Positions 1 through 63,879 of a stretch of DNA of 64,000 bases are shown here, piece after piece. The stretch comes from a virus. Taxonomy: Duplodnaviria; Caudoviricetes. Position numbers and translations under genes: made by a program. The stretch is taken from the IMG/VR virus record IMGVR_UViG_3300028400_000006, positions 1,269-65,268 of that record. One strand, given 5' to 3'. Below the pieces are notes generated by a model. The model saw only the letters and a program-made list of their open reading frames with translations, was not told the origin of the DNA and did not search any database. Positions within the stretch are counted from its first letter, which is position 1, and each line of letters starts with the position of its first letter.

Positions 1-800
1 GTCCGCGTAAACGCCCACGTCCTCGTGAACAGGAACGTGCGCAGCGGCAGCGGCGCAAGCCCTGTTGCCATCGGGCGCCCCGCCTCCTTCTGCAGCAACG
101 CCCGCGCATGAATAGCACCCAACAGACCAGGCACATGCATGTTCAGACAACGGCTCATGGCCACGCTCAACGCCACCAGCGCCGCCACCAAGTGCAGACG
201 GCGATGCATTGCCTTCGACGTCGGCAGCCCATCGAGCAAATCAACCAGCCGACCATACAAAATGGCCGCATATGTGGCCACCGGCAACTGCGACAACGAC
301 TCCTGTGACTCCCACGCCGCCCGCGTCGCCTGCTTCACCAGCCGGCCATACAGGCCATCAGCTAATACACCATAGGCGTGCTGACTGTAGCTCAACTGCA
401 TCGCCCAGCTACGATTGTTCGGCAGTCGCTCCACCACATCCTTCACATAAGGCCACACTTCCTTCACATAGGCCAGCACCGCCTCGTGCTCCCGCTGCGT
501 CCACGTCGCCAGCGACGCCAGATACGGAGACGCCTTCACCTTCGGGCGAGGCCGCCCGCTTTTCGCACCCTGCACGTCGATACCGGTATGCTCCGCCCGC
601 AACAAACCGGAACTATAACCAGAACGCACCAATGAGAGCAGCAAAGAACGATACATGTCGCCGGCGTCGCTGCCGCGCGCAGGATGGCTGTTGAGCAGCG
701 CCGCCAGCGGCGTGTCGTCGTTAAGTAGTGCCTTAATGCCACCTTCGGGCGAAGTCAGTAGGCGATCAACATACAACGTAAGATACTCTGGGTATCGCAT
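1..800 (-). CDS. Hypothetical protein, 3' end truncated by the window edge (absent from the ORF track)
   Basis: ATG at 800 preceded by GGAGGTGTGCT on the minus strand. The frame MRYPEYLTLYVDRLL... stays open for ~266 codons to position 1. Confidence 0.75.
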   Translation of the reverse strand, partial: MRYPEYLTLYVDRLLTSPEGGIKALLNDDTPLAALLNSHPARGSDAGDMYRSLLLSLVRSGYSSGLLRAEHTGIDVQGAKSGRPRPKVKASPYLASLATWTQREHEAVLAYVKEVWPYVKDVVERLPNNRSWAMQLSYSQHAYGVLADGLYGRLVKQATRAAWESQESLSQLPVATYAAILYGRLVDLLDGLPTSKAMHRRLHLVAALVALSVAMSRCLNMHVPGLLGAIHARALLQKEAGRPMATGLAPLPLRTFLFTRTWAFTR

Positions 801-1039
801 AGCACACCTCCTAGGTTAGTAAGCCTACAAGCGAAACGAAACACAAAGGAAGCACTTTGTCAACCCCATCTAAACTAAGTTTCCACGGAAAATTTCATAC
901 TTCATAGTGCTAGGTAAAGATATAACTTCCCTGAGTCGGGGATGTAACCGATGTCGCAAACCACGCCGCGCCGCAAGGCGTTGAAATATTCATGTAAAAG
1001 GGCAGCACCAATTACCCACAAGTATCGTGCGGGGTTGGA

Positions 1040-1330
1040 TTCACGTTTTTCTACGGCAGAAGGGCGAATTTCAAAAAACGATAACCATAGTATAATACGA
1101 GGGAAGCACTTTAATACAACTCAACGCGATGCTTTCCCTTAGGGGCGTCGATAAAAAGGTAACAAAAACATGGCGACGAAACCTACGAAATCGCGTAAAA
1201 CCAACAGGTTATGCGTATAATAGGTAAGGATACGACACACCGCTAGGTTACCTAAAACGTTAATTATACGTTAGTTTATATATACATATAATGTATAAAA
1301 GCATGCCACATTTGCATTTTTCATCAAAAA
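1040..1330. other. AT-rich non-coding region, candidate origin or control region
   Basis: Visibly AT-rich against the GC-rich genome (e.g. TTTATATATACATATAATGTATAAAA at ~1275-1300). Lies between divergent gene sets and next to direct repeats. Confidence 0.45.
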
Positions 1331-1380
1331 CGCCAACCGCCGGCCGGCAGGTGCCGGTCGGCACTATCCCCCTGCACAAC

Positions 1381-1396
1381 GTTACGCCGATGTAAC
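1381..1396. promoter_or_regulatory. 16-bp palindromic motif, copy 1 (GTTACGCCGATGTAAC)
   Basis: Matches the consensus GTKACAYCGRWGTAAC seen ten times in the early arm. Confidence 0.65.
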
Positions 1397-1511
1397 CCTC
1401 CCGAGCGACGCAGGCGACGCAGGCGACGCTTAATTCCCACCCTCCCGAGCGACGCAGGCGACGCTTAATTCCCTCCCGTTCGTCAAAGCGACGCAGGCGA
1501 CGTTTAATCCC
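1396..1511 (+). repeat. Iteron-like imperfect direct repeats (GCGACGCAGGCGACGYTTAAT, about 3 copies)
   Basis: CCCTCCCGAGCGACGCAGGCGACGC at 1396 and 1440; GCGACGCTTAATTCCC at 1423 and 1458; GCGACGCAGGCGACGTTTAATCCC at 1488. Confidence 0.85.
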
Positions 1512-1654
1512 CTCGGCCTCCACCCCACCGCATAAAACCGTCGCCCGAGCCATTTAGAGCGCCGCACAGCGCCGTTAGCCCACCTCCGAGTATCTCCTAC
1601 TTGCCGCCACCTAACGCCACTCAGCGCCGCTCCAAATCCGTTTCTCGCCATGAC

Positions 1655-1683
1655 TTGACATAAGCTCCCATATATGTTATAGT
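1655..1683 (+). promoter_or_regulatory. Strong sigma70-type early promoter P1
   Basis: TTGACA, 17 bp, TATAGT with an extended -10 TG; near-identical copy at 2177. Confidence 0.85.
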
Positions 1684-1688
1684 GTAAG

Positions 1689-1786
1689 GCAGAATGATGG
1701 GTGGGCTCCCGTCCCGCTTCCGGCGGGGTGCAGGTTGTAGCCCATCACGGTGCCAACCGCCGGCGTGACACCGATGTAACGCCGGC
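1689..1786 (+). ncRNA. Candidate structured 5' leader RNA, copy A
   Basis: Outer stem TGGGCT/AGCCCA, inner hairpin CCCGC/GCGGG, with CCCG and CAGGTTG shared with copy B. Confidence 0.45.
1765..1780. promoter_or_regulatory. 16-bp palindromic motif, copy 2 (GTGACACCGATGTAAC)
   Basis: In the P1 leader, flanked by GCCGGC on both sides, upstream of the RBS of ORF 1807. Confidence 0.75.
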
Positions 1787-1806
1787 AGATGAGAGGAGGT
1801 CCCGAC

Positions 1807-2157
1807 ATGGCCCGCTCTACCCGTGGACGTGGCCGCAGGGTGCGCCGCCGCCCTGACGGCATCCAGAAAATCGAAGCGGCGCTCCGCTTCTTCATGGAGC
1901 GCCTGCCAGGTTCCGACCTGCTGTCTGTGGTCTGGGACAGCAGGCATGCCGACGGCTGCCATGTGCGGCTGCATGCTGGCGAGGTTTCGCCGGACGTTGC
2001 CGCCCTGTTCCTCGCACGCAAATTCCATGCGTGCGGGTTCACCGCGCACCTACGCGCCGTGGATGGGCACGTGCAGGGATGGGTGGAGGCGACGCCGCTG
2101 GTGGCGCGTTTCGACCCGTGGCTCAAGCGCATCATTGAGCGCAAGCCATTCGCCTGA
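1807..2157 (+). CDS. Hypothetical early protein
   Basis: GGAGGT RBS before ATG 1807; first gene after P1. Confidence 0.75.
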   Translation: MARSTRGRGRRVRRRPDGIQKIEAALRFFMERLPGSDLLSVVWDSRHADGCHVRLHAGEVSPDVAALFLARKFHACGFTAHLRAVDGHVQGWVEATPLVARFDPWLKRIIERKPFA

Positions 2158-2176
2158 TGATGCGGGTTGCCCACAC

Positions 2177-2205
2177 TTGACATAAGCGCCGGCTTATGTT
2201 ATAGT
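2177..2205 (+). promoter_or_regulatory. Strong sigma70-type early promoter P2
   Basis: TTGACA, 17 bp, TATAGT with an extended -10; followed by the same GGCAGAATGAT as P1. Confidence 0.85.
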
Positions 2206-2209
2206 GTAT

Positions 2210-2341
2210 GGCAGAATGATAGGCAGGCTCCCGGCCGGTGACCGCCGGTGACAGGTTGCAGCCTGCTGGTAGAGGCTTGAGCAACGCAGGCGGCGCAGGA
2301 TACGCGCGCGTCGCGTCATATCATGTGCCGCCTGCGTTGTT
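2210..2341 (+). ncRNA. Candidate structured 5' leader RNA, copy B
   Basis: Outer stem GCAGGCT/AGCCTGC, inner hairpin CCGGT/GCCGG, second long stem CAACGCAGGCGGC/GCCGCCTGCGTTG. Confidence 0.45.
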
Positions 2342-2357
2342 GTGACATCGGTGTAAC
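2342..2357. promoter_or_regulatory. 16-bp palindromic motif, copy 3 (GTGACATCGGTGTAAC)
   Basis: In the P2 leader, upstream of the RBS of ORF 2382. Confidence 0.75.
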
Positions 2358-2381
2358 GTTCAACCGGAAGGGAGGGCACTC

Positions 2382-2699
2382 ATGCCGAAAATGATCCTGA
2401 GCACACTTTCACTCATCCCCGCCGGCCATCCGTTCCGGCGCGCTACCACACCTATTATCTACGGGCGTGCCGAAAACGGAGAGCATTACTACACCACCGT
2501 CAACTCTTTGTTCGTGCGGGATTTCAGTCGGTGGGGGCTGATGCGGGCGTTGCTCAATGCCCGTTGGTATTCGTGCATATCTTCGGTGAACGACGTGCGG
2601 GCGATGGAGCATGTCGTGCCGCTGCACGAAGATCTGCTTCCGAGGGAGCTGCCGGGTGGTGTCATTCGGTATCCGTCCGGTGAGCTGTTTGTGGCGTAA
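2382..2699 (+). CDS. Hypothetical early protein
   Basis: GGGAGG RBS; first gene after P2. Confidence 0.75.
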   Translation: MPKMILSTLSLIPAGHPFRRATTPIIYGRAENGEHYYTTVNSLFVRDFSRWGLMRALLNARWYSCISSVNDVRAMEHVVPLHEDLLPRELPGGVIRYPSGELFVA

Positions 2700-2717
2700 G
2701 CGGCGCCGATGTCTTTC

Positions 2718-2733
2718 GTAACATTGATGTAAC
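2718..2733. promoter_or_regulatory. 16-bp palindromic motif, copy 4 (GTAACATTGATGTAAC)
   Basis: Intergenic, directly before the GGAG RBS of ORF 2746. Confidence 0.65.
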
Positions 2734-2745
2734 GGGAGAACTCTC

Positions 2746-4074
2746 ATGTTCGAATATCGTCCTGATGTGAAGCTGGGTGTTTCGCTCGACACGGACGGGC
2801 GCGTGCGCGTGCCGGCGCCGCTGACGCCGGAGGTGATGTTGCGGCAATACAAGTCGGCGTGGTGGCCGCCTTATGTGCGTGTGCCGCTTCACAGGTTCGA
2901 CCTGTCCCTGCCGACTGATACGTTCGAGCAGGTTGGCTGGCGACGAACGAAGCACCACGCCGAGGCCGGCACGGTGGTGCTGATGGGGGACGGCGAAGTG
3001 CAGTTGCGCGCCATCAACATCGACGACGCCAGGCTGCAAGCGGGACTGCGGCTAAGCGCCGCCGATGTGTCGTTCGGCGATGCGCCGGGCGACCCCCCTC
3101 CCGAGACTACTCTGCGGGGCGTGCTGTGGGGCCTCGTGCAGCGGCACGATGGCGCCAGTTTTCGGCTGGAGCTGCCGTTCGAGGGTGTGACGCGGCGCAC
3201 GTGGAGCGTGAAACGACCGTGGGTGGAGCATGCGCATGTGCCGGACTTCGCCTCGATGGCGCTGCTGGCGTGGCTGGCGTGCCCGGGACCCATGTATAGC
3301 CCCGATGTGAAGCGCATGAGTGCCAAGCTGCCGCCTATCACCCTGTTCGGTGAGGGCCGGTCGGCGATCGACTGGGCGCTCTTGCGCCGCATGGTGGTGT
3401 CGCTGGCGCTGGGTGGGCTGGTGGAGCGTCCGGCACTGTTGACGATGGCGCACCTGCCAACCGGGGCGCTGCGCCGCATGGCGGCGCTGGCGTGGCCGAT
3501 CCTCGGGCACGCCGGCACGGGCGACGCCAGTTCGCCTGGGCTGGCGATGCCTTGCATCATCGGGGCCGGCGACGGTGGCTCGCCAGACAAGAGCCGGCAG
3601 GTGGCGCCTGTTGCCATCCATGCGGCGCGGGCGGCGCTGGCGACGCTCGCCGGCGTGGCGTGGGGGCGGGTGCACCACCCCGGACATACGGTGCCGTGGG
3701 CGCATCTCGTTACCCGCTGGCGGGACGTGGTGGCGCAGGAGAAAGGGGGCGTGCTGTGGCACACCGAGTATTCGGAGGTGGTGGCCACGGCGGACGGCAA
3801 GTTCAGACCGACGCAGACGATGGGGCTGCCGTTCGGACACGGCGGACCCTCCGCCATGTCGGAAGGGGCGGCCCGTGGCCGCCACGATGGAGCTGGGCTG
3901 GGGCCGCTGTATGGCGTGGCGGCGCTGGGCGCCGCCTGCGCCGTGGTGCTGCCTCTCGACCTCACCACCGTGGCGGTGGTGATGCGAGGGCGTGAAGGCC
4001 GGGCGCAGGTGCATACCTACGCCGGGAAGAATGCCCTGTTGGAAGCGATGAACATTCTGGGGTGTGAGCTATGA
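2746..4074 (+). CDS. Hypothetical protein (442 aa)
   Basis: RBS and ATG, long ORF with a 4-nt overlap to the next gene; no family recognised. Confidence 0.75.
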   Translation: MFEYRPDVKLGVSLDTDGRVRVPAPLTPEVMLRQYKSAWWPPYVRVPLHRFDLSLPTDTFEQVGWRRTKHHAEAGTVVLMGDGEVQLRAINIDDARLQAGLRLSAADVSFGDAPGDPPPETTLRGVLWGLVQRHDGASFRLELPFEGVTRRTWSVKRPWVEHAHVPDFASMALLAWLACPGPMYSPDVKRMSAKLPPITLFGEGRSAIDWALLRRMVVSLALGGLVERPALLTMAHLPTGALRRMAALAWPILGHAGTGDASSPGLAMPCIIGAGDGGSPDKSRQVAPVAIHAARAALATLAGVAWGRVHHPGHTVPWAHLVTRWRDVVAQEKGGVLWHTEYSEVVATADGKFRPTQTMGLPFGHGGPSAMSEGAARGRHDGAGLGPLYGVAALGAACAVVLPLDLTTVAVVMRGREGRAQVHTYAGKNALLEAMNILGCEL

Positions 4075-5887: not shown

Positions 5888-6186
5888 CGGTGGCGATGGT
5901 GATCATGACGGTCGACAAGGCCCGGCTTCTCCGGGAGGGGCGGGTGACCATCATTATCGATACCGACAACCCGGAGGCGCTGAAAGATATCGAGGGTGCG
6001 ATCCTCTTGGAGTCGTTTGTGTTCGATATACTGGTGGCGCGCCCGGAAGAACATGACGATATCGCACAGGACCTGCAGACCGCCATTGAAGGAGAGGTGG
6101 GCGTGCCCTGTAGGGTGACCATCATTGTCGAGAAGGCAACCGAGGAAGTGAACCTGAAGCCACGGATCGAAGTGAAGGAAGACTGA
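5884..6186 (+). CDS. Acidic hypothetical protein (paralog of 5591..5887)
   Basis: ATGA overlap with the upstream gene; shared pattern RxTIxxxxxxxExLK...ILxE...IxxDLxxAIExExG. Confidence 0.75.
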   Translation: MTVAMVIMTVDKARLLREGRVTIIIDTDNPEALKDIEGAILLESFVFDILVARPEEHDDIAQDLQTAIEGEVGVPCRVTIIVEKATEEVNLKPRIEVKED

Positions 6187-6188
6187 CC

Positions 6189-6410
6189 ATGCCGAAGTAT
6201 CGTGTGCTGCTGCAGACCTTGGAAGTCAACGTGCACGAGGTCATTATCGAGTCTGATGAGGACCTCGCGAAAACGGAACTGGAGGACATGGCGCTGGATG
6301 CTTTCTTCGACAAGGACTTGCCGGAAGGTAAGAAGGCCACTGTCCTATTTAGCGATGACGGTGAGACTGTCGAAGGGCCGGAAGTTGTGGGGGTCAACGA
6401 AGAAGATTGA
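6189..6410 (+). CDS. Small acidic protein
   Basis: AAGGA RBS; D/E-rich. Confidence 0.7.
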   Translation: MPKYRVLLQTLEVNVHEVIIESDEDLAKTELEDMALDAFFDKDLPEGKKATVLFSDDGETVEGPEVVGVNEED

Positions 6411-6552
6411 ACATGCGGAGCATCATACTTGAGCCGGTGCCGAGCTGGATGAAGCTGCAACCAAATGGCGGCGGAGGAGTTTGGGCTTGGCAGCAACGAC
6501 GCGCTAGCTTGATGAGGGTGCTGAACCAATTCAACGGAAGGGAAGTCTGGCT

Positions 6553-7200
6553 ATGACCGAGACGGTAATCTTTCTGCCGGCATGGTATGATCCCGACGAC
6601 CATGATCCGTTCGACACCGAGGCGCGGTTTGAACTGGACCCAGACAATTTCTGCGACTGCAAGCCACCGGAACGCCTGCGCCGGCAGTTTCTCGACACGG
6701 TGCCGTGGGAGGCGTTCTGGAGTAAGTGGCGCGTTGCGTTGCAATCATGCTTGGCCACCTATCTGCGGGTGAAAACAAATGGCGAATGCCAATTGGCGTT
6801 TGCTTTTGATGACACATGGATGGCGCGGGTGTCGCTGGCGGCAGCGGCGAAGCGGCTTGGTATGGATGAAGATGATGTGTGGGAGTTGTCTGCGGGCACC
6901 CGTGTTCGCTTCGACAAGCTGATGTGTGAAGCCTATGAGCTAACAATGGACGACATCCATCAGGACCTCGTGGACAATTACAATCTGCCGGATGTTTTTG
7001 GGATCCTGGAAGAGATTGCAGCGCAGCATGGCGAATTGCTGCGCAAAGCGACGGAGCATCGCCAGCGGGGTATGGACCAGACGGCCGAACATTTGCACAA
7101 AAAAGCAACGCAGGCGGCGCGGGCGAAGCTGGCGCTGCGTATCGCCGAAGAGCTGAAGGAGCGTTACACCGATGTCACAGCTGATACGTGCCGCGCTTGA
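6553..7200 (+). CDS. Hypothetical protein
   Basis: Long ORF in the operon with a plausible RBS. Confidence 0.75.
   Translation: MTETVIFLPAWYDPDDHDPFDTEARFELDPDNFCDCKPPERLRRQFLDTVPWEAFWSKWRVALQSCLATYLRVKTNGECQLAFAFDDTWMARVSLAAAAKRLGMDEDDVWELSAGTRVRFDKLMCEAYELTMDDIHQDLVDNYNLPDVFGILEEIAAQHGELLRKATEHRQRGMDQTAEHLHKKATQAARAKLALRIAEELKERYTDVTADTCRA
7163..7178. promoter_or_regulatory. 16-bp palindromic motif, copy 7 (GTTACACCGATGTCAC)
   Basis: Spans the RBS spacer and the ATG of ORF 7172. Confidence 0.75.
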
Positions 7201-7612
7201 TGGCACATTGGCGTGGGAAGAGGCGCGGGCATACCTGGAGGAGGCCAGTCCCTCCCTGCCGTCGCCGTATCGCCAGCTGTTCCAACAGGCGATGCGGGCG
7301 GCGCAGGCGTCGCCGGATGCGTGGCGGGAGGTGGTGGTGCTTATCGCCGCCGCTTTCGCCAACGACGGGTACGCCTTTGCCGCATATGCTCCCCTGCTGG
7401 TGAAGGCGGCCATACACACCCTTCAGGCGGGTAAGGCGCGGGGCGAGCCCCGCATGATCAACACCACCCTACCGAAGCTGCATGACAGCCCAGGGTTGGA
7501 TCTGACTTGGACCTACCGCCGCCTACATGTGGAGGTGTCACTGCCGCCTGACGTGCCGAGCGCGGCGGTCTACTCGTTATTGTTGAACGTGGAGGTGGAG
7601 AAGCTGAAATGA
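7172..7612 (+). CDS. Hypothetical protein
   Basis: AAGGAG RBS and ATG. Confidence 0.7.
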   Translation: MSQLIRAALDGTLAWEEARAYLEEASPSLPSPYRQLFQQAMRAAQASPDAWREVVVLIAAAFANDGYAFAAYAPLLVKAAIHTLQAGKARGEPRMINTTLPKLHDSPGLDLTWTYRRLHVEVSLPPDVPSAAVYSLLLNVEVEKLK

Positions 7613-8625
7613 AAAGGACGCTGAAGGCCCTGAAGACTTACTGCTACAAAGAGTGGCGGCGGTCGCCGGAGATGGCCACCGTGCGCGTCGTCAACCCCGG
7701 CGAACTGCAATTCTGCGATGGTCGCATCGACGTGCATCTATACAGGAAAGGGGTGCAGGGGCCGCAGGACAAGGCCGCGCCGCTGGAGCCGCTGATGAAA
7801 GGCTTCGATAAGCTCGACATTGATGACGAAGGTGAAGCCTTCATCGAGGGAGACGATATGGCTCTGCTGGTTGAGGCAGAGCAGTGGCATGGCCAGGAGC
7901 TGAAGGTGGGGCCGTGGGACGACGCCCACGCCATCACCGACACGCGCTGGATGAAGGCGGCGGTGGAGATGCTAGCGCCGGCGATGGCGAACGAGGAAGC
8001 GCGCTATTATCTCAACGCCATCGCCATCGACGACCATGACATCGTGGCCGTCAACGGGCGCATCCTGGCGACGCTGGCGACGCCGGTGAAGCTGTATGAC
8101 AACGTGAAGCCGTTCCTCATCTGGCGCAACGCGGTGCCGGTCATCAAAGCGATGATCAATGACTTCGACCTACCCGAAGCGGTCTTCTACGACATGACCG
8201 ACAACAACATGTGCCTCGTGTTCGACGGAGCGGAGCTAACCATCCGCACCATCGAGAACCACCACTATCCCGATTGGCGTCGAGTCATTCCTTATGACGC
8301 CCCACTCCGGGGGAAAGTGCAGGCGGATGTTTTCGTGAAAGCGTGCCGCCAGTTAAAGAAAATGGGCGCCCGCTCCGTGACGTGGGCGAACGGCCGCCTC
8401 ATGGCGCGTTTACCTGAAGGCAAGATCAGTGTTGATATGTCGGGTATTCGAGATGATGCACTCATTCGCCTGGTCCCGGAAGAGGCCATTGCTCTGCTGG
8501 CGCCGCTGAAGAAGCGCACGGTGCGGCTCTATCAGAAAGACCCATCGTCGCCGATACGGTTCGAGGTGATGGAGCCGGTGGAGGCCGGCAAGTGGACGGG
8601 CGTTGCCATGCCTGCCCGCTTTTGA
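7609..8625 (+). CDS. dnaN: DNA polymerase III beta sliding-clamp-like protein
   Basis: AMANEEARYYLNAI, IVAVNGRILA and YPDWRRVIP correspond to DnaN signatures (ETRYYLNG, ATDGHRL, FPDYxRVIP). Confidence 0.75.
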   Translation: MKRTLKALKTYCYKEWRRSPEMATVRVVNPGELQFCDGRIDVHLYRKGVQGPQDKAAPLEPLMKGFDKLDIDDEGEAFIEGDDMALLVEAEQWHGQELKVGPWDDAHAITDTRWMKAAVEMLAPAMANEEARYYLNAIAIDDHDIVAVNGRILATLATPVKLYDNVKPFLIWRNAVPVIKAMINDFDLPEAVFYDMTDNNMCLVFDGAELTIRTIENHHYPDWRRVIPYDAPLRGKVQADVFVKACRQLKKMGARSVTWANGRLMARLPEGKISVDMSGIRDDALIRLVPEEAIALLAPLKKRTVRLYQKDPSSPIRFEVMEPVEAGKWTGVAMPARF

Positions 8626-8626
8626 C

Positions 8627-8642
8627 GTTACATCGGAGTAAC
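8627..8642. promoter_or_regulatory. 16-bp palindromic motif, copy 8 (GTTACATCGGAGTAAC)
   Basis: Fills the gap between the dnaN-like stop and ATG 8646; contains the GGAG RBS. Confidence 0.75.
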
Positions 8643-8645
8643 GCC

Positions 8646-8963
8646 ATGATCTGGGGTGAGCGGTTCGAGCTTTTTCACCAGCTACATATGACCAGGCGTA
8701 TGCTGCGCCGTATACAATGCCATGCGCAGCTGGTACCGGAATTACTGTTGGCGTATCGTCTGCTATGTTTACATCTACAACGGGCGGACCTGACGACATC
8801 TCTATGCCAGATCGCCATAGTAAACGTGCGCCTTAAGGTGCTGATCTTGATGAACAATTGTAAATTGCTGGATACGCTTCCTACGCATAGGCCCCTGCTG
8901 GCGCGTCGCTTGTCCGAAGCGGCGAGGGAAGTTGTGGGCGACATAAGGGAGGCATTCGCATGA
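8646..8963 (+). CDS. Small Leu/Arg-rich helical protein
   Basis: ATG after motif copy 8; weak similarity to the three following ORFs. Confidence 0.65.
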   Translation: MIWGERFELFHQLHMTRRMLRRIQCHAQLVPELLLAYRLLCLHLQRADLTTSLCQIAIVNVRLKVLILMNNCKLLDTLPTHRPLLARRLSEAAREVVGDIREAFA

Positions 8964-9007
8964 AGAAGACCTTTGAATTGCATAGGCGCTAAAGTAGGTG
9001 AGGAGAG

Positions 9008-9322
9008 ATGATGGGACCACATGAGTATCAGAGACGGCAGCGGGAGTGGCTGTCGCCGCATGCGCTGCTGCACTACGACCGGCGCCGCCTGCGGCGCATG
9101 AATGACCCAGTGTCCCGGCTGACCCATGCGCTCTTGTGCGATGTGTTGAAGCGGGTTTCGCCGATGGTGTTGCCGTCGTCGCTACTCTATACGCTACGGG
9201 TGATGTCCATGTTTTCGGGCGCTATACGCGGCGCCACGTATATCATACCCGTTGAACGCCGCCTGTATAACCTGGAAGCCCTGCGGCATAATGCCAGGAA
9301 AGTGCTGAAGGAGGTGCGATGA
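9008..9322 (+). CDS. Small Leu/Arg-rich helical protein
   Basis: GAGGAG RBS. Confidence 0.65.
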   Translation: MMGPHEYQRRQREWLSPHALLHYDRRRLRRMNDPVSRLTHALLCDVLKRVSPMVLPSSLLYTLRVMSMFSGAIRGATYIIPVERRLYNLEALRHNARKVLKEVR

Positions 9323-9323
9323 A

Positions 9324-9617
9324 GTGATGTGTAGTGAAGATGCAAGCATGAAGGCGGTGAAGGTTTTGCGTGAGGCAGCGCAGCGGTTGCGCGCGCGTGG
9401 CGAGGCGAAGCTGGCGGCGCAAGTGTCGCTGGCGGCGCGAGCGGTGGAGCTGTTACCTGCGGACGCGTGGGACTCTCCAACTCTGGCGGAGCTTTGGTTT
9501 GCGGTGACTATGGTGAAGGCGCTCGCACATGGTCGGCGCCCATCCGGAGTGTCGTTGCATTTAACTACAGTGCTAAACCTTGTGCGGCGGGTTCAAGATG
9601 AAGAGTTACCGGGTTAA
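9324..9617 (+). CDS. Small helical protein (paralog of 9598..9879)
   Basis: LREAAQRLRARGEAKLAAQVSLAARAVEL aligns with the next ORF. Confidence 0.7.
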   Translation: MMCSEDASMKAVKVLREAAQRLRARGEAKLAAQVSLAARAVELLPADAWDSPTLAELWFAVTMVKALAHGRRPSGVSLHLTTVLNLVRRVQDEELPG

Positions 9618-9879
9618 TCGGGAAACGGTTTTACGCACCCTACGTAGGGGTTGCGAGCGTTTGAAGCGTATGGGGGAGGATCGTTTGGTGGCACAGCTGA
9701 TGTTAGCTATCCGCACCCTTGAATTGACTGATGAGGACGCCTTTCCGTATTTCGAATGGAGTGATCTTGTCTTTACCACTTCGATGTTTGAGGTGGCGAT
9801 GAATGCGGAACTTCCGGGCCAAGTTATAGAAAGTGCACGGCATATATGCCTTGTGGTTGAGCGTGTTACAGCGAAGTAA
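9598..9879 (+). CDS. Small helical protein (paralog of 9324..9617)
   Basis: LRRGCERLKRMGEDRLVAQLMLAIRTLEL; stop codon lies inside motif copy 9. Confidence 0.7.
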   Translation: MKSYRVNRETVLRTLRRGCERLKRMGEDRLVAQLMLAIRTLELTDEDAFPYFEWSDLVFTTSMFEVAMNAELPGQVIESARHICLVVERVTAK

Positions 9880-9880
9880 C
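9865..9880. promoter_or_regulatory. 16-bp palindromic motif, copy 9 (GTTACAGCGAAGTAAC)
   Basis: Contains the TAA stop and abuts the GGAGG RBS, the same arrangement as copy 5. Confidence 0.75.
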
Positions 9881-9884
9881 GGAG

Positions 9885-10337
9885 GTGGTGATGCTGGAGG
9901 AAGTGATGGGGCGGATAGTGGAAGACCAGCTTCTCTCCCCACATGAAAAACAAAAACTGCTTGCGAAGACACAACTGGCGGCGCAAGCGTTGAAGCAGGC
10001 AGGTAGGCTGTCCGACAAACAACAAAGGATGGTGCGGCGCCTGGTTATACTGATAACCACCGCCATGGACGCCCTTGATATTGTCACGGCAAATGCGGCC
10101 TTATCGGAAATTGTTCGAGTAGCCAACGGTGCCGAGTGGCGACAGTATAAGGGCTACTCTACACAATCAGTAATCCAACACACTGTATGGGAATTGGAAG
10201 CGCCGAATAAGAAACTGGCTGAAGCCTTCCTGTATTATGAGTTCGATGGCGCTGATGAAGAACTGGCGAGGCGTCTCGGAGAAGAGCTGTATGCCGAAGA
10301 CGCTGATGTTGACCTTGAAGTGGAGGGGGTGGAGTGA
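9885..10337 (+). CDS. Hypothetical protein with acidic C-terminus
   Basis: GGAGG RBS; the start may be ATG 9891. Confidence 0.7.
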   Translation: MVMLEEVMGRIVEDQLLSPHEKQKLLAKTQLAAQALKQAGRLSDKQQRMVRRLVILITTAMDALDIVTANAALSEIVRVANGAEWRQYKGYSTQSVIQHTVWELEAPNKKLAEAFLYYEFDGADEELARRLGEELYAEDADVDLEVEGVE

Positions 10338-10678
10338 TGAGGGACGTGATCGCAGCCTTGAAGAAGCTTGACTTACCTGCCCATGAGCGGCTGGCGCTGG
10401 AGTATATCGATGACGTGGTAATTGACACAGATGACATTGAGGATGTCATTCGAGAACTGGAGGAGACGGACATTGCTGCCGGCTCTGGCATCGCTTCGGA
10501 CTTGATGTTCACAGACAAGGTTTACGAGTGGGTGCGAGAACATGTTGAAGCTTTTGACGAAGTTATCAGAAGTGGGCTGTTGGAAGGATATGGATACCGA
10601 AGCCTTGTGACGGTGGTGTGGGTTATTATCGAACTCGGTGCGCGGGACCTGGCGGCGCGGTTGAGGGGTGAGCTATGA
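10334..10678 (+). CDS. Acidic helical protein, possible DNA mimic
   Basis: D/E-rich; GSGIASDLMF...W..EH.E.FDE...VW..IE pattern resembles a common phage early-gene family. Confidence 0.55.
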   Translation: MMRDVIAALKKLDLPAHERLALEYIDDVVIDTDDIEDVIRELEETDIAAGSGIASDLMFTDKVYEWVREHVEAFDEVIRSGLLEGYGYRSLVTVVWVIIELGARDLAARLRGEL

Positions 10679-11709
10679 AGTCGTTCACGTCGTTGGCGGT
10701 GCGGTTCCTCTCCGGCGAAACGGAAGGGCGATACAAACACTACCACATCGAAGGCGACTGGCTGGCCTCGCATCAGCAAAGCGAGAGTTACCCTCTTGCT
10801 TATCGTCCCACTTTTCGGCGTGTGTTTGTCGCCTATCCCCATGAACGTGTGAGCAGGGCCTATCACATCTTGCTGGACCTTGCGCGGGCGAAACCTTCTT
10901 TGCGGCTGCATCTCGCCAATGCTTCCTTGTTGGCTGGCGGTTATTCGCTGGCGCAGAGGGGCGCCCTTCCTGCCTTTGGCGCAGGGCGGGAGATGCTTTT
11001 GAAGGCGGCCCTGCTGGAGATAGGGGACAAGATCACGGACATTATCACAGCTTCCTCTTACTCCACGCTTTACCTGCTAGACACGTTTTGCGGCGAGCCC
11101 ATGCGAGAAGAGCTAATAAAGCGTTGGCGCTGGGGTGGGTGGGAAGTGGTCTTGCCTGGTCGATTGGTGTCGGGGATCAAGACCATGCTGATGGAAGACC
11201 TTAACCGGCGCTGGAAACGTTTTACGCCTGAAGATGGCGTAGAGGTGGCGCTTCGCTTACTGCATCTGGCGGCGCATGCGCAGAAAGTGCGGCATCGCGC
11301 CATGGAGTGGCTGCGGCGCAAGAGCAAACGTAAGCTCCTTCTGGTCGGCAGGAACGGCGAGTACGCCACTCTGCGGCTGAATGACGTGGAGTTGCCTCCG
11401 ATTTATAACACTACCACGATCAAAAGGTTTTACCGCCGCGCAGCGCTGGTGGTGCAGGCGGCGCTTCGGGAAGCGCTACGCCGGCAGGACTGGAAGGCGG
11501 GTGTGTTTGTTCAGCTTGCGTGGATGGCGGGGGGCAGCGCGGCGTATATCGACGCTGTTTCTCGCCCGAAAGAGCAGCGCGGGTCTGCGTTTCGTGACTG
11601 GCTGTATTGGCTGACACATGTTGATCTGTCAGCCAAAGAGGCAGCCACCGTGTTGAAAGTGGTTGAGCTGCATCGAAAGATGCAAATCCAGCAAAATGGA
11701 GGTGCGTGA
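10675..11709 (+). CDS. Hypothetical protein coupled upstream of the AAA+ ATPase
   Basis: 344-aa ORF with overlapping start and stop codons at both ends. Confidence 0.7.
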   Translation: MKSFTSLAVRFLSGETEGRYKHYHIEGDWLASHQQSESYPLAYRPTFRRVFVAYPHERVSRAYHILLDLARAKPSLRLHLANASLLAGGYSLAQRGALPAFGAGREMLLKAALLEIGDKITDIITASSYSTLYLLDTFCGEPMREELIKRWRWGGWEVVLPGRLVSGIKTMLMEDLNRRWKRFTPEDGVEVALRLLHLAAHAQKVRHRAMEWLRRKSKRKLLLVGRNGEYATLRLNDVELPPIYNTTTIKRFYRRAALVVQAALREALRRQDWKAGVFVQLAWMAGGSAAYIDAVSRPKEQRGSAFRDWLYWLTHVDLSAKEAATVLKVVELHRKMQIQQNGGA

Positions 11710-12806
11710 TGGAACAAGCGATGAACAAGGTGACGGTGGGTGGTCTGAAGAAGTTCGTGAAGCTGTCGGTGGATACCGGCCATGCGCTGTTTGTGCACGG
11801 CACGTTTGGTGTCGGCAAAACCGAGATTGTTGGCAGCACCCTGCGGGAGCTTGGCTACGAGCCGGTGGACTGGTTCCGGGCGTCGTCCATGTCTCCGGAC
11901 ACGCTGGCCGGCGTGCCCTACGTGGTCGGTGAAAAGCTCGCCCGCGCCGTGCCGGAAATTGTCGACGCATGCCAGCGCGTGGCGGCGCAGGGCAAGCGGC
12001 CGGCGCTGGTGATGGATGAGATGAACATCGCCACACCGTCAATGCTCGGCGCCATGCTGCAGCTGCTGCGCGAGAAGCAGCTGGCCGGGTTCCACTTGCC
12101 TGACAGCACGCCGGTGATTGGTATGGGCAACCTGGCCACGGATGGCTCCATCGTCCATGAGTTGCCCCTGCCGGCGGCCAACCGTATGATGCATGTGGTG
12201 TTCACCGGCCCGACCTTCGAGGAATGGGAGCGTTGGGCCGGCGGCGCGGGCATTCATCCGGCGGTGATGAACACGCTGCGGGAACAACCGCACCTGCTCA
12301 ATGAACGGGCGTCGTTGGAGGACCCGACGGCAGGTATCGGACGTATCGTGTGGGGCACGCCACGCACGTGGGCGATGCTGTCGGATCTGCTGAAGGCTGC
12401 GAAACGGGAGGATTACATGACCGTCGCCGCCAGCGTCGTCGGCGACGCCTGCGCCGTGGCGCTGGAGACGTCGCTGCAGGGGTTTTTCGAGACGGTATCC
12501 TTGAATGAAGTGCTGCGCTCGCCGGAGACGACACCGGTGCCGAACGTGGAGCATCCTGGCCATTGCTACATGCAGATGCTGCGGTTGCTGCAGGAGCTGG
12601 AAGCGATGAATGGCGTCGACATGCGCCGCCAGGCAGCGGATAAGCTGACTATTTATCTGAAGCGGATGGATCGTTCGTGGGTGGCGGCGGCGCTGGCGCT
12701 GGTATATCGCTCTATGCCGAAGGCCATGCAGGCGCTGTTTGATGGTCAGGCGGTGATGGAGCTGGGCCTGGAGGAGATCGGCGACGTGGTGATGAGCCTG
12801 GATTGA
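11706..12806 (+). CDS. AAA+ ATPase (MoxR/dynein-related type)
   Basis: Walker A GTFGVGKT, Walker B LVMDE, GMGN sensor, PAANRMMH Arg finger, TPRTW. Confidence 0.9.
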   Translation: MMEQAMNKVTVGGLKKFVKLSVDTGHALFVHGTFGVGKTEIVGSTLRELGYEPVDWFRASSMSPDTLAGVPYVVGEKLARAVPEIVDACQRVAAQGKRPALVMDEMNIATPSMLGAMLQLLREKQLAGFHLPDSTPVIGMGNLATDGSIVHELPLPAANRMMHVVFTGPTFEEWERWAGGAGIHPAVMNTLREQPHLLNERASLEDPTAGIGRIVWGTPRTWAMLSDLLKAAKREDYMTVAASVVGDACAVALETSLQGFFETVSLNEVLRSPETTPVPNVEHPGHCYMQMLRLLQELEAMNGVDMRRQAADKLTIYLKRMDRSWVAAALALVYRSMPKAMQALFDGQAVMELGLEEIGDVVMSLD

Positions 12807-12810
12807 GGAG

Positions 12811-14001
12811 GTGGTGATGAAGAACGTCAATCGCGCCCTGTCGCGCATGGTCACGCGTATGCCGCTGCATGCGCAGTTTCTCCTGCGTTATCCCGTGAAA
12901 GAGTTGCCGGGCATCGGCACGGCAGGTGTCGGGCTGGACCGGCGCCGCCGCATGCCGGTGATTCTTGTCGACCCAGAGTTCATGGAACCGCTGTCGGAAG
13001 AAGAGTGCATGTTTGTGCTGGCGCATGAAGTGGAGCACCTGATGCGGCAGCATGTCTACGACCGCATGGAAGGGAAGGACAAGTGGCTGTGGAACCTCGC
13101 CACGGATTACGTCATCAACTCGGCGCTGGTGTCCTATGATCTGCCATCGCCGGTGCCGATACATGACGTTCTGAAGGATCGTCAGCTGCCGATGGGTGCC
13201 TGTGTTGGGTGCCCGGGCGGTAGCGTGCGGCTCATCGAAGAGGAGGTTTACAAGCAATTGTTGGAAGATCCGCCGCAGAGCGAAGGTGGCGTTGGTGGTT
13301 TCGATGACCACGATCTATGGGGGGAGATTGATGCTCTTCCCGAAGGTGAGCGACAGGAAGTGCGGCGACGCATGGAGGCCGTGGCTAGGGCGGCGTGGCA
13401 GGCGGCGCCAGAGAAGGCGCGTGGCAACGCGCCGGCGGCGCTACGGCGTCTTATTGAGTCGAAGGTTGAGGCCAAGGTGCCATGGCAACAGTTGTTGTCC
13501 CGTGTCGTAGCCGAGGTGTCCGCTGGCATCGAGGACTGGCGCTATTCGCGGCCAAATCTGCCGGCGCTGGCGCGGGATTGTTCCGTTATCATGCCAGGCC
13601 GGGTGCATTATGGTGTCAATCGGCTGGCCTTCGTCGTCGACACCTCCGGCTCCATGGGTAGCCACGAGCTTGGGCAGGCGGCGGCGGAGTTGGCGACGCT
13701 GGCGAAGCTGCGGAGCTTTAACGAGGTGGTTCTGATTGAGGTGGATATGGAGGTACATGCCTCCGAAGCCCTGCGTCCGGAACAGCTGGCGGAGCGCTGT
13801 CAGCAGATCGAGTTCCGGGGCGGGGGTGGCACCGCCATGCAGCCGGGTCTGGACGCTGCCTACGAGGCAAAGGTGGGCTTGACAGTGGTCTTCACGGATG
13901 GCTATTGTGAAGACCACGTGCAAGAGCATGGCCCGACCGTGTGGTTGACAACGACGGGGAAAGCTCCGCAGGGGGTGCGGTCTATCAGAGTGGAGGTATG
14001 A
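12811..14001 (+). CDS. DUF2201-type metallopeptidase plus vWA domain protein
   Basis: LAHEVEH (HExxH), WNLATDYVIN, MIDAS VDTSGSM, GGGGT, VFTDGY. Confidence 0.9.
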   Translation: MVMKNVNRALSRMVTRMPLHAQFLLRYPVKELPGIGTAGVGLDRRRRMPVILVDPEFMEPLSEEECMFVLAHEVEHLMRQHVYDRMEGKDKWLWNLATDYVINSALVSYDLPSPVPIHDVLKDRQLPMGACVGCPGGSVRLIEEEVYKQLLEDPPQSEGGVGGFDDHDLWGEIDALPEGERQEVRRRMEAVARAAWQAAPEKARGNAPAALRRLIESKVEAKVPWQQLLSRVVAEVSAGIEDWRYSRPNLPALARDCSVIMPGRVHYGVNRLAFVVDTSGSMGSHELGQAAAELATLAKLRSFNEVVLIEVDMEVHASEALRPEQLAERCQQIEFRGGGGTAMQPGLDAAYEAKVGLTVVFTDGYCEDHVQEHGPTVWLTTTGKAPQGVRSIRVEV

Positions 14002-14094
14002 GAAGATGAATTGAAGGGTGGTGAGGCTGCAGGCGGAAGTTCGATCCATCAATGCTGCTTGCGCTACTATCCAGAAAGATCAGGAGCGGATCAA

Positions 14095-14520
14095 ATGACC
14101 AGAGAAGAGGCGCTAGAGATCGAAAGGAAGCTGCAGGAGGCTGGCTCTATCTCGGCGTTGGCGGGTGTGCTTGGCGTATCACGCACAACTGCCCACCAAC
14201 GTCGACGCCTGGCTGAAGCTGTGCTTGGCCGTTCCTTGGTGTCGCCGGTGCGCGGTGCGACAAAAGCTGCTCTGGCGAAGGCGATTGCGGAGGCGGTGGT
14301 GGAGGGCCGCATTGGTCCCTGGTTTGGGGATGTGGCGAAAGAGTATGATAGCCACGAGCGTTGGGTGCGTGATATAGCCTCCCGTGCCGGCATCAAGCGC
14401 AGGTGTGTGTATCTGCCAGAAGAAGTATCTGACGCTGCGCTTAGAAATGCTATTCGGGATCTCATCCGTTACACCGGTGTAACTGAAGCGAAATTGGTGC
14501 GGCGCATGGAGGGCACGTGA
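14095..14520 (+). CDS. Helix-turn-helix DNA-binding protein
   Basis: AGSISALAGVLGVSRTTAHQR is an HTH signature; a second HTH-like segment FGDVAKEYDSHERWVRDIA; AGGAG RBS. Confidence 0.7.
   Translation: MTREEALEIERKLQEAGSISALAGVLGVSRTTAHQRRRLAEAVLGRSLVSPVRGATKAALAKAIAEAVVEGRIGPWFGDVAKEYDSHERWVRDIASRAGIKRRCVYLPEEVSDAALRNAIRDLIRYTGVTEAKLVRRMEGT
14468..14483. promoter_or_regulatory. 16-bp palindromic motif, copy 10 (perfect palindrome GTTACACCGGTGTAAC)
   Basis: Inside the 3' end of the HTH gene. Confidence 0.75.
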
Positions 14521-14756
14521 TGCTTTACTGGGATGGTGATGTGATCTGCTATCGGCGCGGGCGAGAAACGATCAGGTTTCCGAAAGAAGCGTCAGATATG
14601 CTAATTGATATGCTCCGACGCATGTGCGACATCTCTGGTAACTGCCAGGCTATGTTGGATTGGGTACTGGAAAATGGCGAGGTGGATCCAACCAGCAGGT
14701 CTATGCTGGTGGATGTGCAGGGTGCGCTAAAAGAAATAGAGGAGGTGTTGCCTTGA
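14517..14756 (+). CDS. Hypothetical protein
   Basis: GGAGG RBS with overlapping start and stop codons. Confidence 0.65.
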   Translation: MMLYWDGDVICYRRGRETIRFPKEASDMLIDMLRRMCDISGNCQAMLDWVLENGEVDPTSRSMLVDVQGALKEIEEVLP

Positions 14757-15313
14757 ATCCGGCGGAGGTGATGAAGGTGGTGCCGTATGCTTTGGCTAAC
14801 AGGGATTTGCATGTAACAAACGAGGGTTGGGCTTGTACTCCTCTTGGGGAGAGCTTTATTGAACTTCCTGTGGGGAAGAAAATTGGCCTTTTTGACGTCG
14901 GTGTTGTTGTTCGTGGCATATGGGTGCAGTCATCGTGGGGTAGCAGTTTACAACTTCGTCCTTCTTGGGCGTCGTGGCGCCATATTCAGTTAGATGGACA
15001 AACACACCGATTGGTGTTTGCTGTTCCTGATGATGATACTCTTGTTCGGAAAGTGGCTTATTTTCATTACTATGAAAATATACTTTCGTATGACGATGGT
15101 GCAGCCCCATTGGTTTTATATCCTATTCATTCAGCACCTACAGCGCTTATTAGTCAGGCGTACCGTCAAAGTTGGCGGCAAGTATGTCGATTAAAAGAGT
15201 TGACTTCTGGCACGTCACTTTCGCGTGTATCCCTGATCCACCTGCATGCTGTTCGCCTGGCCTTGAAAGAACGTTTGCAACTGTTGAAGGAGAGGCTCGA
15301 TGCAGCGGCCTAG
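14753..15313 (+). CDS. Hypothetical protein with lower GC
   Basis: GAGGAGG RBS before TTG 14753. Confidence 0.6.
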   Translation: MNPAEVMKVVPYALANRDLHVTNEGWACTPLGESFIELPVGKKIGLFDVGVVVRGIWVQSSWGSSLQLRPSWASWRHIQLDGQTHRLVFAVPDDDTLVRKVAYFHYYENILSYDDGAAPLVLYPIHSAPTALISQAYRQSWRQVCRLKELTSGTSLSRVSLIHLHAVRLALKERLQLLKERLDAAA

Positions 15314-15695
15314 GCTAATAGACGCCGGCGTAGTTATGCAGGCAGGGCGAGTAATCGAAGAGTTTTTGTCGCAGGTTCCGGAGGCGAAGCTATTTCTCAC
15401 GCCACCGGATACGTCGGTGGAGCTGTTTCAGCGGCGCGCGCGTATACCAGAGATCGCAAAGCAGGTTCATGACGTAAAAGGTAAGCAACGTCTGTCCGCT
15501 GCCTTACAAGTGGCGTCCTTCGTTCACGCCCAGAAGTTTGGCAAAGCGACCGCCGCTGATGAAGTGCGGGTGGCGAACCAGTGGGCGCTGGTCGATGAAG
15601 GCATGAAGTATAAGCTCAATGCCTACAAAGATTGGTTTCAGCGCATGCAGGATAGCCGTGAGCTCAAGGAAATGCAGCAGTGGGGGTGGGAGTGA
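15300..15695 (+). CDS. Hypothetical protein
   Basis: GGAGAGG RBS; coupled to the DNA polymerase gene. Confidence 0.65.
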   Translation: MQRPRLIDAGVVMQAGRVIEEFLSQVPEAKLFLTPPDTSVELFQRRARIPEIAKQVHDVKGKQRLSAALQVASFVHAQKFGKATAADEVRVANQWALVDEGMKYKLNAYKDWFQRMQDSRELKEMQQWGWE

Positions 15696-17644: not shown

Positions 17645-18312
17645 CCTTGAACGTGCCTAGCTGGTCCACGTCGACCATCGAGCTATACCACAATTGCCCC
17701 TATCGGTATTATCGGCAGCGGGTGAAGAAGGACGTGCAGGACAAACCGAACGAGTATGCGGAGTTCGGCACCTATCTGCACCAGCGCATGGAGGACCGGC
17801 TGCGTGAAGGACGCCCGTTACCGCAGGATCTTCTGGTGCAATGCCCGAAATTGGAGGACTATGCGCAGGAGGTTGAAGCTCTGCCGGGCGATAGGATGCT
17901 TGAGCATCAGATGGCCATTAATCGGGCACTTAAGCCGGTGGCGTGGTTCGCCAAGGATGCGTGGGGTAGGGCCATCGCCGACGTGTTGGTGCTGAACAAC
18001 GACGAAGCGTGGGTGGTTGATTGGAAAACAGGCAAACCGAAAGATAACCGCCTGCAATCACACATTCTCGCTTTTGTGGCACTATGCACGTTTCCAGCGA
18101 TACAGACATTGCATGCGTCCTTTGTCTATGTGAAGCATGGAGTGAAGAAGGAAGAAACATACCGGCGCGCCGATGACATGGTGTTTCTCGCGGACGCCAT
18201 TTCCGATCAGCTAGCGGATATTTCATTTAGCTTCGCTAATGGTGGATGGGGAAAGAAACCATCCGGTCTTTGCAAGTGGTGCCCTGTGGAGGAGTGTGAA
18301 CATCATGGCTGA
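17641..18312 (+). CDS. PD-(D/E)XK Cas4/RecB-like exonuclease
   Basis: NCPYRY, FGTYLH, IADVLV...VVDWKTG, C-terminal CKWCPVEEC. Confidence 0.9.
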   Translation: MTLNVPSWSTSTIELYHNCPYRYYRQRVKKDVQDKPNEYAEFGTYLHQRMEDRLREGRPLPQDLLVQCPKLEDYAQEVEALPGDRMLEHQMAINRALKPVAWFAKDAWGRAIADVLVLNNDEAWVVDWKTGKPKDNRLQSHILAFVALCTFPAIQTLHASFVYVKHGVKKEETYRRADDMVFLADAISDQLADISFSFANGGWGKKPSGLCKWCPVEECEHHG

Positions 18313-18973
18313 GCGGTGGACCAAGCAGATGGACAACCTGCTTATTGTGCTGCGAGAGCAGGGTTATTCTTTCAGCGCTATTGCGGCGGAATTCACCGCC
18401 GTTGGTATACCTCTCGGTAAGAATGCCTGCCTTGGGCGTTGGCGCCGCCTGCAAGAAGGTGGCGTAATAACGAGTAGTGGCTGTCGAACTACTTACAAAA
18501 AGTGGACGCCTGAAGAAGAGGAAAAATTGGTGTCGCTCCTTATGGACGGTATGACGATACCTGACGCCGCTGCTACGTTGGAGCGTAGCATAACAAGTGT
18601 CAGGTCTAAATGGGAAGAGCTTCGCACTCGTAATCCAGCTTTGGCCGCACGTAAAAAAGAAGCCGTGGCCAAGCGGAGTAGAACTCCGACCGCGAAGAAA
18701 AAAGCACCCAAGCCTCCTGCAATCATTCATGTTGAGTATGACAATACAGATCGTGGGCCTTGGGTGATGACGCCAGCGGAGCGCCGAGAAACTTATCGGG
18801 CAGCGCCGGCGACGCTGATGTATCTATCTGATGAGCATCACCTTCCTCCTGATACCGGCGAATGCCATTTCATTTTGGGTAAGGGAGATCAGTGGCGGTA
18901 TTGTCGTCAGCCGTGTACAGGCTCATATTGCGCCGAGCACGAAGAGGTATGCTATGGCGGTCAGACAAAATGA
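18305..18973 (+). CDS. gcrA: GcrA-like transcriptional regulator
   Basis: N-terminal WT...QGYSFSAIAAE...KNACLGRWRRL and C-terminal CHFILG...YC...YCAEH...Y match the two GcrA domains; an extra WTPEEEEKL Myb-like repeat. Confidence 0.75.
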   Translation: MAERWTKQMDNLLIVLREQGYSFSAIAAEFTAVGIPLGKNACLGRWRRLQEGGVITSSGCRTTYKKWTPEEEEKLVSLLMDGMTIPDAAATLERSITSVRSKWEELRTRNPALAARKKEAVAKRSRTPTAKKKAPKPPAIIHVEYDNTDRGPWVMTPAERRETYRAAPATLMYLSDEHHLPPDTGECHFILGKGDQWRYCRQPCTGSYCAEHEEVCYGGQTK

Positions 18974-22413: not shown

Positions 22414-22415
22414 CC

Positions 22416-22460
22416 GTGGTGGGGGCGTGGACGCACGTCCCCACCACCCCGCGAGGGGTC
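22416..22460 (+). terminator. Tandem hairpins between the SSB-like and primase genes
   Basis: GTGGTGGGGGCGTG-GACG-CACGTCCCCACCAC followed by ACCCC-GCGA-GGGGT; no U-tract. Confidence 0.45.
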
Positions 22461-22467
22461 GGGTTCG

Positions 22468-63868: not shown

Positions 63869-63879
63869 GGAGAAACGTC

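Follow-up and report, generated by a model that had tools for sequence, protein, structure and literature searches.

Twin early promoters, each followed by the same covarying leader hairpin, in a podovirus-like phage genome

The left end of the phage genome IMGVR_UViG_3300028400_000006 carries two tandem, closely similar promoters, each followed by a leader, and the two leaders share a fold more than a sequence. The locus raises the question of whether these leaders encode a functional RNA and, if so, how that RNA may work. The source record comprises 65,268 bases and was rated complete by CheckV; its bases 1269-65268, a stretch of 64,000 nt, were analysed here and are called the window, and positions refer to the window unless stated otherwise. 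The original prediction for this DNA described two early promoters, each with a leader RNA whose stems carry compensatory changes, and proposed a put-like antiterminator, after the put RNAs of phage HK022. All promoters, stems, and motifs that it listed were found in the sequence. The element is with high probability a real, selected, and structured leader RNA; it is apparently new and present twice. The put label fails as a family and survives as one possible way of working.

Promoters and transcript starts

The two promoter-leader cassettes lie in tandem, 522 bp apart, and comprise the following features:

1655-1683, plus strand: predicted promoter P1 (-35 TTGACA 1655-1660, 17-bp spacer, TG 1675-1676, -10 TATAGT 1678-1683)
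1688-1698, plus strand: copy A of the invariant 11-nt initial transcribed sequence GGCAGAATGAT, 3' of P1
1700-1746, plus strand: leader hairpin A (outer stem 1700-1707/1739-1746; CC/GG 1708-1709/1733-1734; inner stem 1712-1717/1723-1728)
2177-2205, plus strand: predicted promoter P2 (-35 TTGACA 2177-2182, 17-bp spacer, TG 2197-2198, -10 TATAGT 2200-2205)
2210-2220, plus strand: copy B of the invariant initial transcribed sequence GGCAGAATGAT, 3' of P2
2222-2267, plus strand: leader hairpin B (outer stem 2222-2229/2260-2267; CC/GG 2230-2231/2254-2255; inner stem 2234-2239/2244-2249)

P1 and P2 each match the sigma-70 consensus at 11 of 12 positions and have an extended -10 element (TG at -15/-14). 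Eleven sites with at least 10 of 12 matches were detected on both strands of the whole window, and P1 and P2 are the sole 11/12 matches among them. The 32-nt promoter pattern common to P1 and P2 occurs twice, with no match in 100 shuffles, and the two cassettes are real. The identity of P1 and P2 runs from two bases before the -35 element through TAAGC, after which six of the seven spacer bases differ, and it resumes at TATG and continues through the -10 element, GTA, one variable base, and GGCAGAATGAT. Since the 7-bp spacer core is saturated with change (1/7 identical) and its flanks are identical, the duplication must be old and its identical parts under selection.

Judging by the usual distance to the -10 element, transcription should start at about 1688-1691 in copy A and 2210-2213 in copy B. 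Two overlapping -10-like hexamers, CAGAAT and AATGAT, both with the critical A and T, are contained in GGCAGAATGAT. A third exact copy of GGCAGAATGAT, at 43660, lies in coding DNA with neither promoter nor hairpin and was set aside as a chance occurrence.

Structure of the leader hairpin

Each leader contains a single nested, two-tier hairpin of 46-47 nt at the same distance behind P1 and P2, starting 12 nt past the start of GGCAGAATGAT. Hairpin positions are numbered from the first G of GGCAGAATGAT (coordinate minus 1687 in A, coordinate minus 2209 in B). In the A numbering, the shared fold consists of an outer stem of eight pairs (13-20/52-59), two C-G pairs (21-22/46-47), and an inner stem of six pairs (25-30/36-41), closed by a loop (5 nt in A, 4 nt in B). 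The original description of both stems and of the invariant CCCG and CAGGTTG holds.

All 16 pairs are standard in both copies, despite changes at 11 of the 32 paired bases. Four pairs (15, 16, 25, and 28) have changed on both sides, and three (13, 14, and 30) have switched between G-C or C-G and G-U. Among the 14 unpaired positions, five differ and nine are invariant (C23 G24, C33 C34, C44 A45, and U48 U49 G50); in hairpin A, the invariant unpaired bases include CG 1710-1711, CA 1731-1732, and UUG 1735-1737. The rate of change is similar in stems and loops (34% vs 36%), and the stem changes always keep the pairing.

Past the hairpin, the leaders are unrelated and differ in length. The distance from the hairpin end to the AUG of the gene behind it is 60 nt in A and 114 nt in B, whereas the distance to the promoter is constant; therefore, the element is tied to the transcription start and not to the start codon. 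Its position directly behind each early promoter is the one that put and nut sites occupy. A model of the two copies and a window scan revealed no further hairpin copy in the genome.

Evidence for selection on the folded RNA

Consensus folding of the two copies with alifold gave -26.0 kcal/mol, compared with -11.7 +/- 2.8 in column shuffles (none of 1000 as good, z -5.2), and a structure conservation index of 0.99 at 66% identity. The probability that 11 random changes at paired positions keep 16 of 16 pairs is 1.2e-5. The minus strand gives the shared fold a weaker score (-20.5 vs -26.0), in keeping with the four G-U pairs, which would be mismatches there. Taken together, the shuffle statistics, the pair-keeping probability, and the strand difference therefore argue for selection on the folded sense RNA, and the claim that pairing is kept through compensatory changes on the transcribed strand holds.

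These data also bear on two other explanations. The hairpins could be a functionless remnant of the duplication with coincidental pairing, as might be suspected with two copies only and hairpins that are not unusually stable; this is very improbable, given the saturated spacer core between identical flanks, the retention of all pairs after 11 changes, and the shuffle result. An element acting at the DNA level, either an operator or a downstream promoter element read on double-stranded DNA, is likewise a poor candidate. Two DNA repeat families resembling protein sites lie nearby, and GGCTCCCG and CAGGTTG, both invariant, might serve as half-sites. However, the stems conserve complementarity and not sequence, the four G-U pairs would mismatch on the other strand, and the 31 bp between the outer arms exceed the spacing of a usual dimer site.

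Several points weaken the case for a selected RNA fold. The structure was derived from the same two sequences used to test it, and the evidence base consists of two copies and one strain variant. The alifold value of -26.0 rests on one gap placed by hand in the loop; the plain MAFFT alignment gives a consensus of -22.65, with the inner stem out of register. The pair table was produced by a custom script, and the covariance model of the two copies rests on the MAFFT alignment, with the gap outside the loop and the B inner-stem register unrepaired. In neither copy is the shared fold the predicted minimum free energy (MFE) structure (-23.0 vs -26.6 in A, -23.5 vs -25.7 in B), and the pair probability is 0.08 in the outer stem of A and 0.04 in the inner stem of B. 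The MFE structure of A is a register pairing UGAUGGGU with GCCCAUCA (-26.6), and B prefers a different inner fold (-25.7). By themselves, the 63-nt segments with the hairpins show no unusual stability (z -0.75 in A and -1.04 in B, with 43/200 and 27/200 shuffles as good). An alternative pairing TGATGGG/CCCATCA had been noted in A; it exists and is the MFE structure there, but it is absent in B and is removed by a change, G1699A, in the related strain described below.

Natural variation in a related strain

A related strain, here X2, was recovered in contigs of another sequencing run and is approximately 92% identical over 1653-2389, with 60 differences. All differences within 1653-1821 were itemised, so the strain comparison covers copy A. 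In X2, copy A shows no change in the promoter, in the invariant start, in the outer stem, or in any of the invariant loop bases. The change G1699A abolishes the competing register of copy A, T1712C converts a U-G into a C-G pair, and G1722A falls in the loop. One change, G1726A, counts against the shared structure, as it creates a C.A mismatch in the inner stem. When copy A was refolded with the X2 changes, the shared structure became the MFE structure (-25.0). On balance, one change is against the shared structure, two are for it, and one is against the alternative pairing. A contig from a third sequencing run (X3) is identical over 2174-2322.

The X2 changes are also informative about a possible leader peptide. 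In both copies, an AUG within GGCAGAATGAT (1694 and 2216), close to the inferred 5' end, opens a short frame of 24 and 11 codons, respectively, the translation of which might be regulatory; the peptides share the pattern M-x-G-x-L-P-x-x-x-R-R, and two codon differences are synonymous. Such a role is nevertheless hard to credit. The AUG lacks a ribosome-binding site and lies too far from the -10 element for a leaderless start, the frames differ in length, first-position differences are as frequent as third-position ones, and four of five in-frame changes in X2 alter the residue. Pair-keeping accounts for every stem change, and coding does not.

The gene behind P2 is exchanged between the strains:

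2382-2699, plus strand: gp2 (105 aa), first gene behind P2

In X2, 77 unrelated letters replace 1577-1652, just left of the -35 element, and 340 unrelated letters replace the gp2 body (2390-2733), whereas the intervening stretch 1653-2389 is retained. The cassette thus acts as a conserved expression module behind which strains swap genes, in this case gp2.

Searches for further copies

The original prediction called for a covariance-model search built from the two copies, and this yielded no additional homologues. Over the window, the two-copy model scored 93.5 and 86.3 bits for the true copies, with 10.9 bits for the next best match. It detected nothing in 19 loci totalling 334,622 bases and nothing in five whole records of the nearest phages (28-40% DNA polymerase identity); the two most complete of these records contain no 11/12 promoter pair. 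The promoter-plus-start pattern had no occurrence in viral contigs and none in metagenome contigs. The hairpin signature had one match in viral contigs, which was rejected as it lies in coding DNA without a promoter. In genome contigs (GTDB), at least 120 stretches carried the signature; 120 were scanned with the two-copy model, the best of them scored 23.7 bits, vs 86-93 for the true copies, and the full-length alignment that was inspected lacked a promoter. Neither the leader region nor gp3 had a match in GenBank phages (blastn, tblastn).

Possible function of the hairpin

The favoured reading, to which we give a probability of roughly 0.35, is a nut- or put-type action of the hairpin on RNA polymerase through the nascent RNA, possibly read by the product of the first gene behind P1:

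1807-2157, plus strand: gp1 (116 aa), first gene behind P1

The hairpin, at +13 to +59, would act in cis on the polymerase that has just made it, like nut and put sites. Within the invariant start, the -10-like hexamers may retain sigma-70 and pause the polymerase during hairpin folding. Next, the invariant bases of the internal loop might be recognised by the polymerase itself (put-type, in which no protein factor takes part) or by a factor (nut-type), for which gp1 would be the obvious candidate, and the polymerase could subsequently pass pauses, roadblocks, or Rho-dependent stops along the 23.5-kb plus arm. If the element has to be transcribed by the very polymerase that it acts on, a separate copy per promoter is what one would predict. 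This arrangement, together with the fixed distance to the start site and the invariant unpaired bases accompanied by covarying stems, fits an RNA that is read while it emerges.

Put RNAs likewise sit just behind early promoters; PMC9378689 describes them as approximately 70-74 nt long, starting at +3, with two adjacent stems arranged as a V-shaped clamp on the beta' zinc-binding domain. For putL, that paper proposes that a -10-like element (+23 to +28) aids folding. The present element resembles HK022 put in its position behind early promoters with one copy per promoter, in copies that share fold more than sequence, and in an early -10-like hexamer, which lies within +3 to +11 of the inferred start here and at +23 to +28 in putL. 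It differs in forming one nested hairpin of 46-47 nt instead of the two adjacent stems of about 70-74 nt described there. Moreover, the promoters are tandem on one strand here and divergent in HK022, no evident terminators lie downstream, and the genome is an unrelated, podovirus-like one.

In lambda-type phages, nut combines a linear element with a hairpin at the start of the early transcript, and the N protein is small and arginine-rich. The locus is similar in having a conserved linear element followed by a hairpin at the early transcript start and, as the first gene downstream, the small gp1 with an arginine-rich N-terminus (8 Arg in residues 3-15), which is disordered in the predicted structure. 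The first 18 residues are invariant in the sole gp1 homologue, which is 87% identical overall. From the analogy with N and nut, we infer that gp1 is a candidate reader of the hairpin. In contrast to a boxB-type stem-loop, the present hairpin is much larger, with 16 pairs and an internal loop, and unlike N, gp1 has a folded body with a predicted ferredoxin-like alpha/beta fold and no Pfam or PHROG match.

Two further systems offer partial parallels. The conAn system of Gram-positive conjugative plasmids, as outlined in PMC8191782, also places an RNA element and a small protein at the head of a very long operon; its RNA element is large and belongs to other hosts and other kinds of mobile element.

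T7-type phages have tandem, strong, near-consensus promoters for the host polymerase at their early end and long hairpins in the leader, and the present locus is alike in its tandem near-consensus promoters and long leader hairpins. We know of no report of T7-type early promoters that share a covarying hairpin placed at a constant distance from their starts.

Several results speak against a nut- or put-type action. A put covariance model was built from eight GenBank sequences, namely HK022 putL and putR and six phage records found by blastn with putL, and was run over the whole window with filters off. Of 40 matches at E<=10, the best (12.1 bits) lay elsewhere, leader A scored 4.9 bits (E 8, rank 37/40), and leader B had no match. 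These noise scores and the different architecture rule out membership of the HK022 put family, which in the phage records found here is confined to enterobacterial phages. An Rfam search (cmscan of 800-3000 at E<=10) returned four chance-level matches, the best with 21.4 bits vs a gathering score of 90, and assigned no family; no boxA/boxB-type element was among them. The folded body of gp1 is generic and matched no family in Pfam or PHROG; the fold search and the Atlas search returned only a generic permuted ferredoxin-like fold, and a PDB sequence search gave chance matches only. Arginine-rich tails are common in nucleic-acid-binding proteins of any kind. Finally, terminator-like sites of the intrinsic type numbered 22 in 6000-25900, vs 17.4 +/- 4.3 expected, which is no enrichment (Rho-dependent sites are unpredictable), and the intergenic hairpins of the early arm lack U tracts. 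These results therefore lend no support to a need for antitermination.

The same features would suit a post-transcriptional operator, in which a phage or host protein binds the hairpin and causes early shut-off, polymerase arrest, translation repression, or decay, with no termination resistance. Covarying stems with invariant unpaired bases are typical of a protein site, one copy is present per early transcript, gp1 has its arginine-rich tail, and the early region is dense in other repeated motifs resembling protein sites, suggesting elaborate control. We regard this as rather unlikely. The hairpins lie 60 and 114 nt from the start codons, so they cannot directly cover the ribosome-binding sites, and no RNA-binding family was detected among 30 scanned proteins (28 distinct genes, including 23 plus-arm products).

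A position fixed to the 5' end in both copies, and not to the gene, would also be expected of a determinant of transcript stability or processing, since each primary transcript needs its own copy; a 5'-proximal structure could block 5'-end-dependent decay or direct a processing cut. This appears improbable. Given the inferred start, 9-12 conserved unpaired nt precede the stem, and an unpaired stretch of this length would leave the end accessible to 5'-end-dependent decay. A protective role calls for a stem but neither for nine invariant unpaired bases nor for an initial sequence that does not vary. In addition, an interrupted stem of 16 pairs is short for RNase III; a long hairpin in leader B would be better suited, but it is absent from leader A.

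Within the nut- or put-type reading, a tentative and somewhat doubtful proposal is that the locus, in an uncultured phage outside the lambdoid group, represents a processive antitermination or anti-pausing site of a new class. Aided by a sigma-dependent pause, the hairpin would convert host RNA polymerase for all of the 23.5-kb arm, either alone or with gp1, in the latter case as an analogue of N and nut unrelated to them. To our knowledge, very few systems are known in which RNA elements reprogram the polymerase from the nascent transcript. If the proposal were true, an unrelated element at the same genomic position in a distant lineage (approximately 26% portal identity to its nearest cultured relatives) would mean that this solution arose more than once, and the phage would offer a compact two-copy system for testing communication between a nascent hairpin and the polymerase. 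Whatever its function, the cassette offers a clean case, found in nature, of paralogous leaders that have evolved by compensatory change.

Phage genome and early arm

The plus arm carries DNA polymerase A, a helicase, and a primase-helicase, and the minus arm carries the portal and terminase genes. Plus-strand genes are nearly gapless from 1807 to 25338 (23.5 kb), and the sigma-70 scan found no other promoter scoring above 10/12 in this arm. By portal sequence, the closest GenBank phages are approximately 26% identical (33 records, all <60%); the closest IMG/VR DNA polymerases are 28-40% identical (17 loci). Because of these distant relatives and the lack of GenBank matches for the leader region and gp3, the phage is considered an orphan lineage. 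Three homologues of gp3 were found at 59-69% identity; the DNA of the gp1 and gp3 homologues was not found by alignment-based scans of three contig collections.

The entries at 18239-18973 and 11706-14001 include a GcrA-like/Myb-like regulator (Pfam 25 bits, just below the cut-off of 26.9; PHROG 323 at 2e-13) and an AAA-like protein followed by a DUF2201 metallopeptidase-VWA protein. The regulator is a hint of an alphaproteobacterial host. On the minus strand, a 2299-aa open reading frame (25335-32234) matches nothing in Pfam or PHROG.

Upstream of P1, a leftward gene of at least 689 aa leaves the record start (genome 1-90) via a 9-nt repeat encoding Gly-Ala-Ala units. A direct repeat containing GGAAGCACTTT occurs at 840-858 and 1094-1112, in the AT-rich region between this gene and P1. 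A terminator-like hairpin with a T run lies on the minus strand at 1331-1349, between the AT-rich divergent region and P1, and could be the end of a short leftward transcript.

Other repeats in the leaders

Beyond the conserved hairpin, the leaders contain three further structured features:

1759-1786, plus strand: second stem of leader A, formed by the 16-bp palindrome GTGACACCGATGTAAC (1765-1780) and the GC-rich sequence on either side of it
2280-2341, plus strand: long leader-B hairpin with arms 2282-2302/2319-2339, built from two inverted copies of the 13-nt motif ACGCAGGCGRCGC
2342-2357, no strand assigned: 16-bp palindrome GTGACATCGGTGTAAC ahead of the gp2 ribosome-binding site, a member of a 12-copy family

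A second stem had been reported in each leader. Both are present, but they are not homologous and are copies of genome-wide DNA repeat families. In X2, C1782G breaks one flank pair of the second stem of leader A. The long hairpin of leader B folds very stably (z -4.65) and has no counterpart in leader A. The 16-bp motif reported before the ribosome-binding site is also present, as a member of the DNA palindrome family and not as a shared RNA feature.

Imperfect palindromes of the form GTNAC-N6-GTNAC number 12 in the genome (24 hits on both strands vs 2.0 in shuffles), all within its left 16 kb. They lie at window positions 1381, 1765, 2342, 2718, 4320, 5509, 7163, 8627, 9865, and 14468 and, to the left of the window, at genome positions 231 and 438. 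Five or more of them (1765, 2342, 2718, 4320, and 9865) lie no more than 30 nt upstream of plus-strand start codons, and that at 8627 is a possible sixth if its gene starts at a downstream ATG. These palindromes look like putative DNA sites of a dimeric regulator and not like RNA stems, because their third and half-site positions vary without compensation. The perfect copy sits inside the gene of a weak helix-turn-helix protein (14011-14520).

The motif ACGCAGGCGRCGC occurs 26 times in the window vs 0.64 expected. Four tandem copies lie just upstream of P1 (1408-1503), an inverted pair spans 2284-2337, and others are scattered. An array of at least seven units of 17 nt at the record end (63875-64000) runs off the record and probably explains where the assembly stopped.

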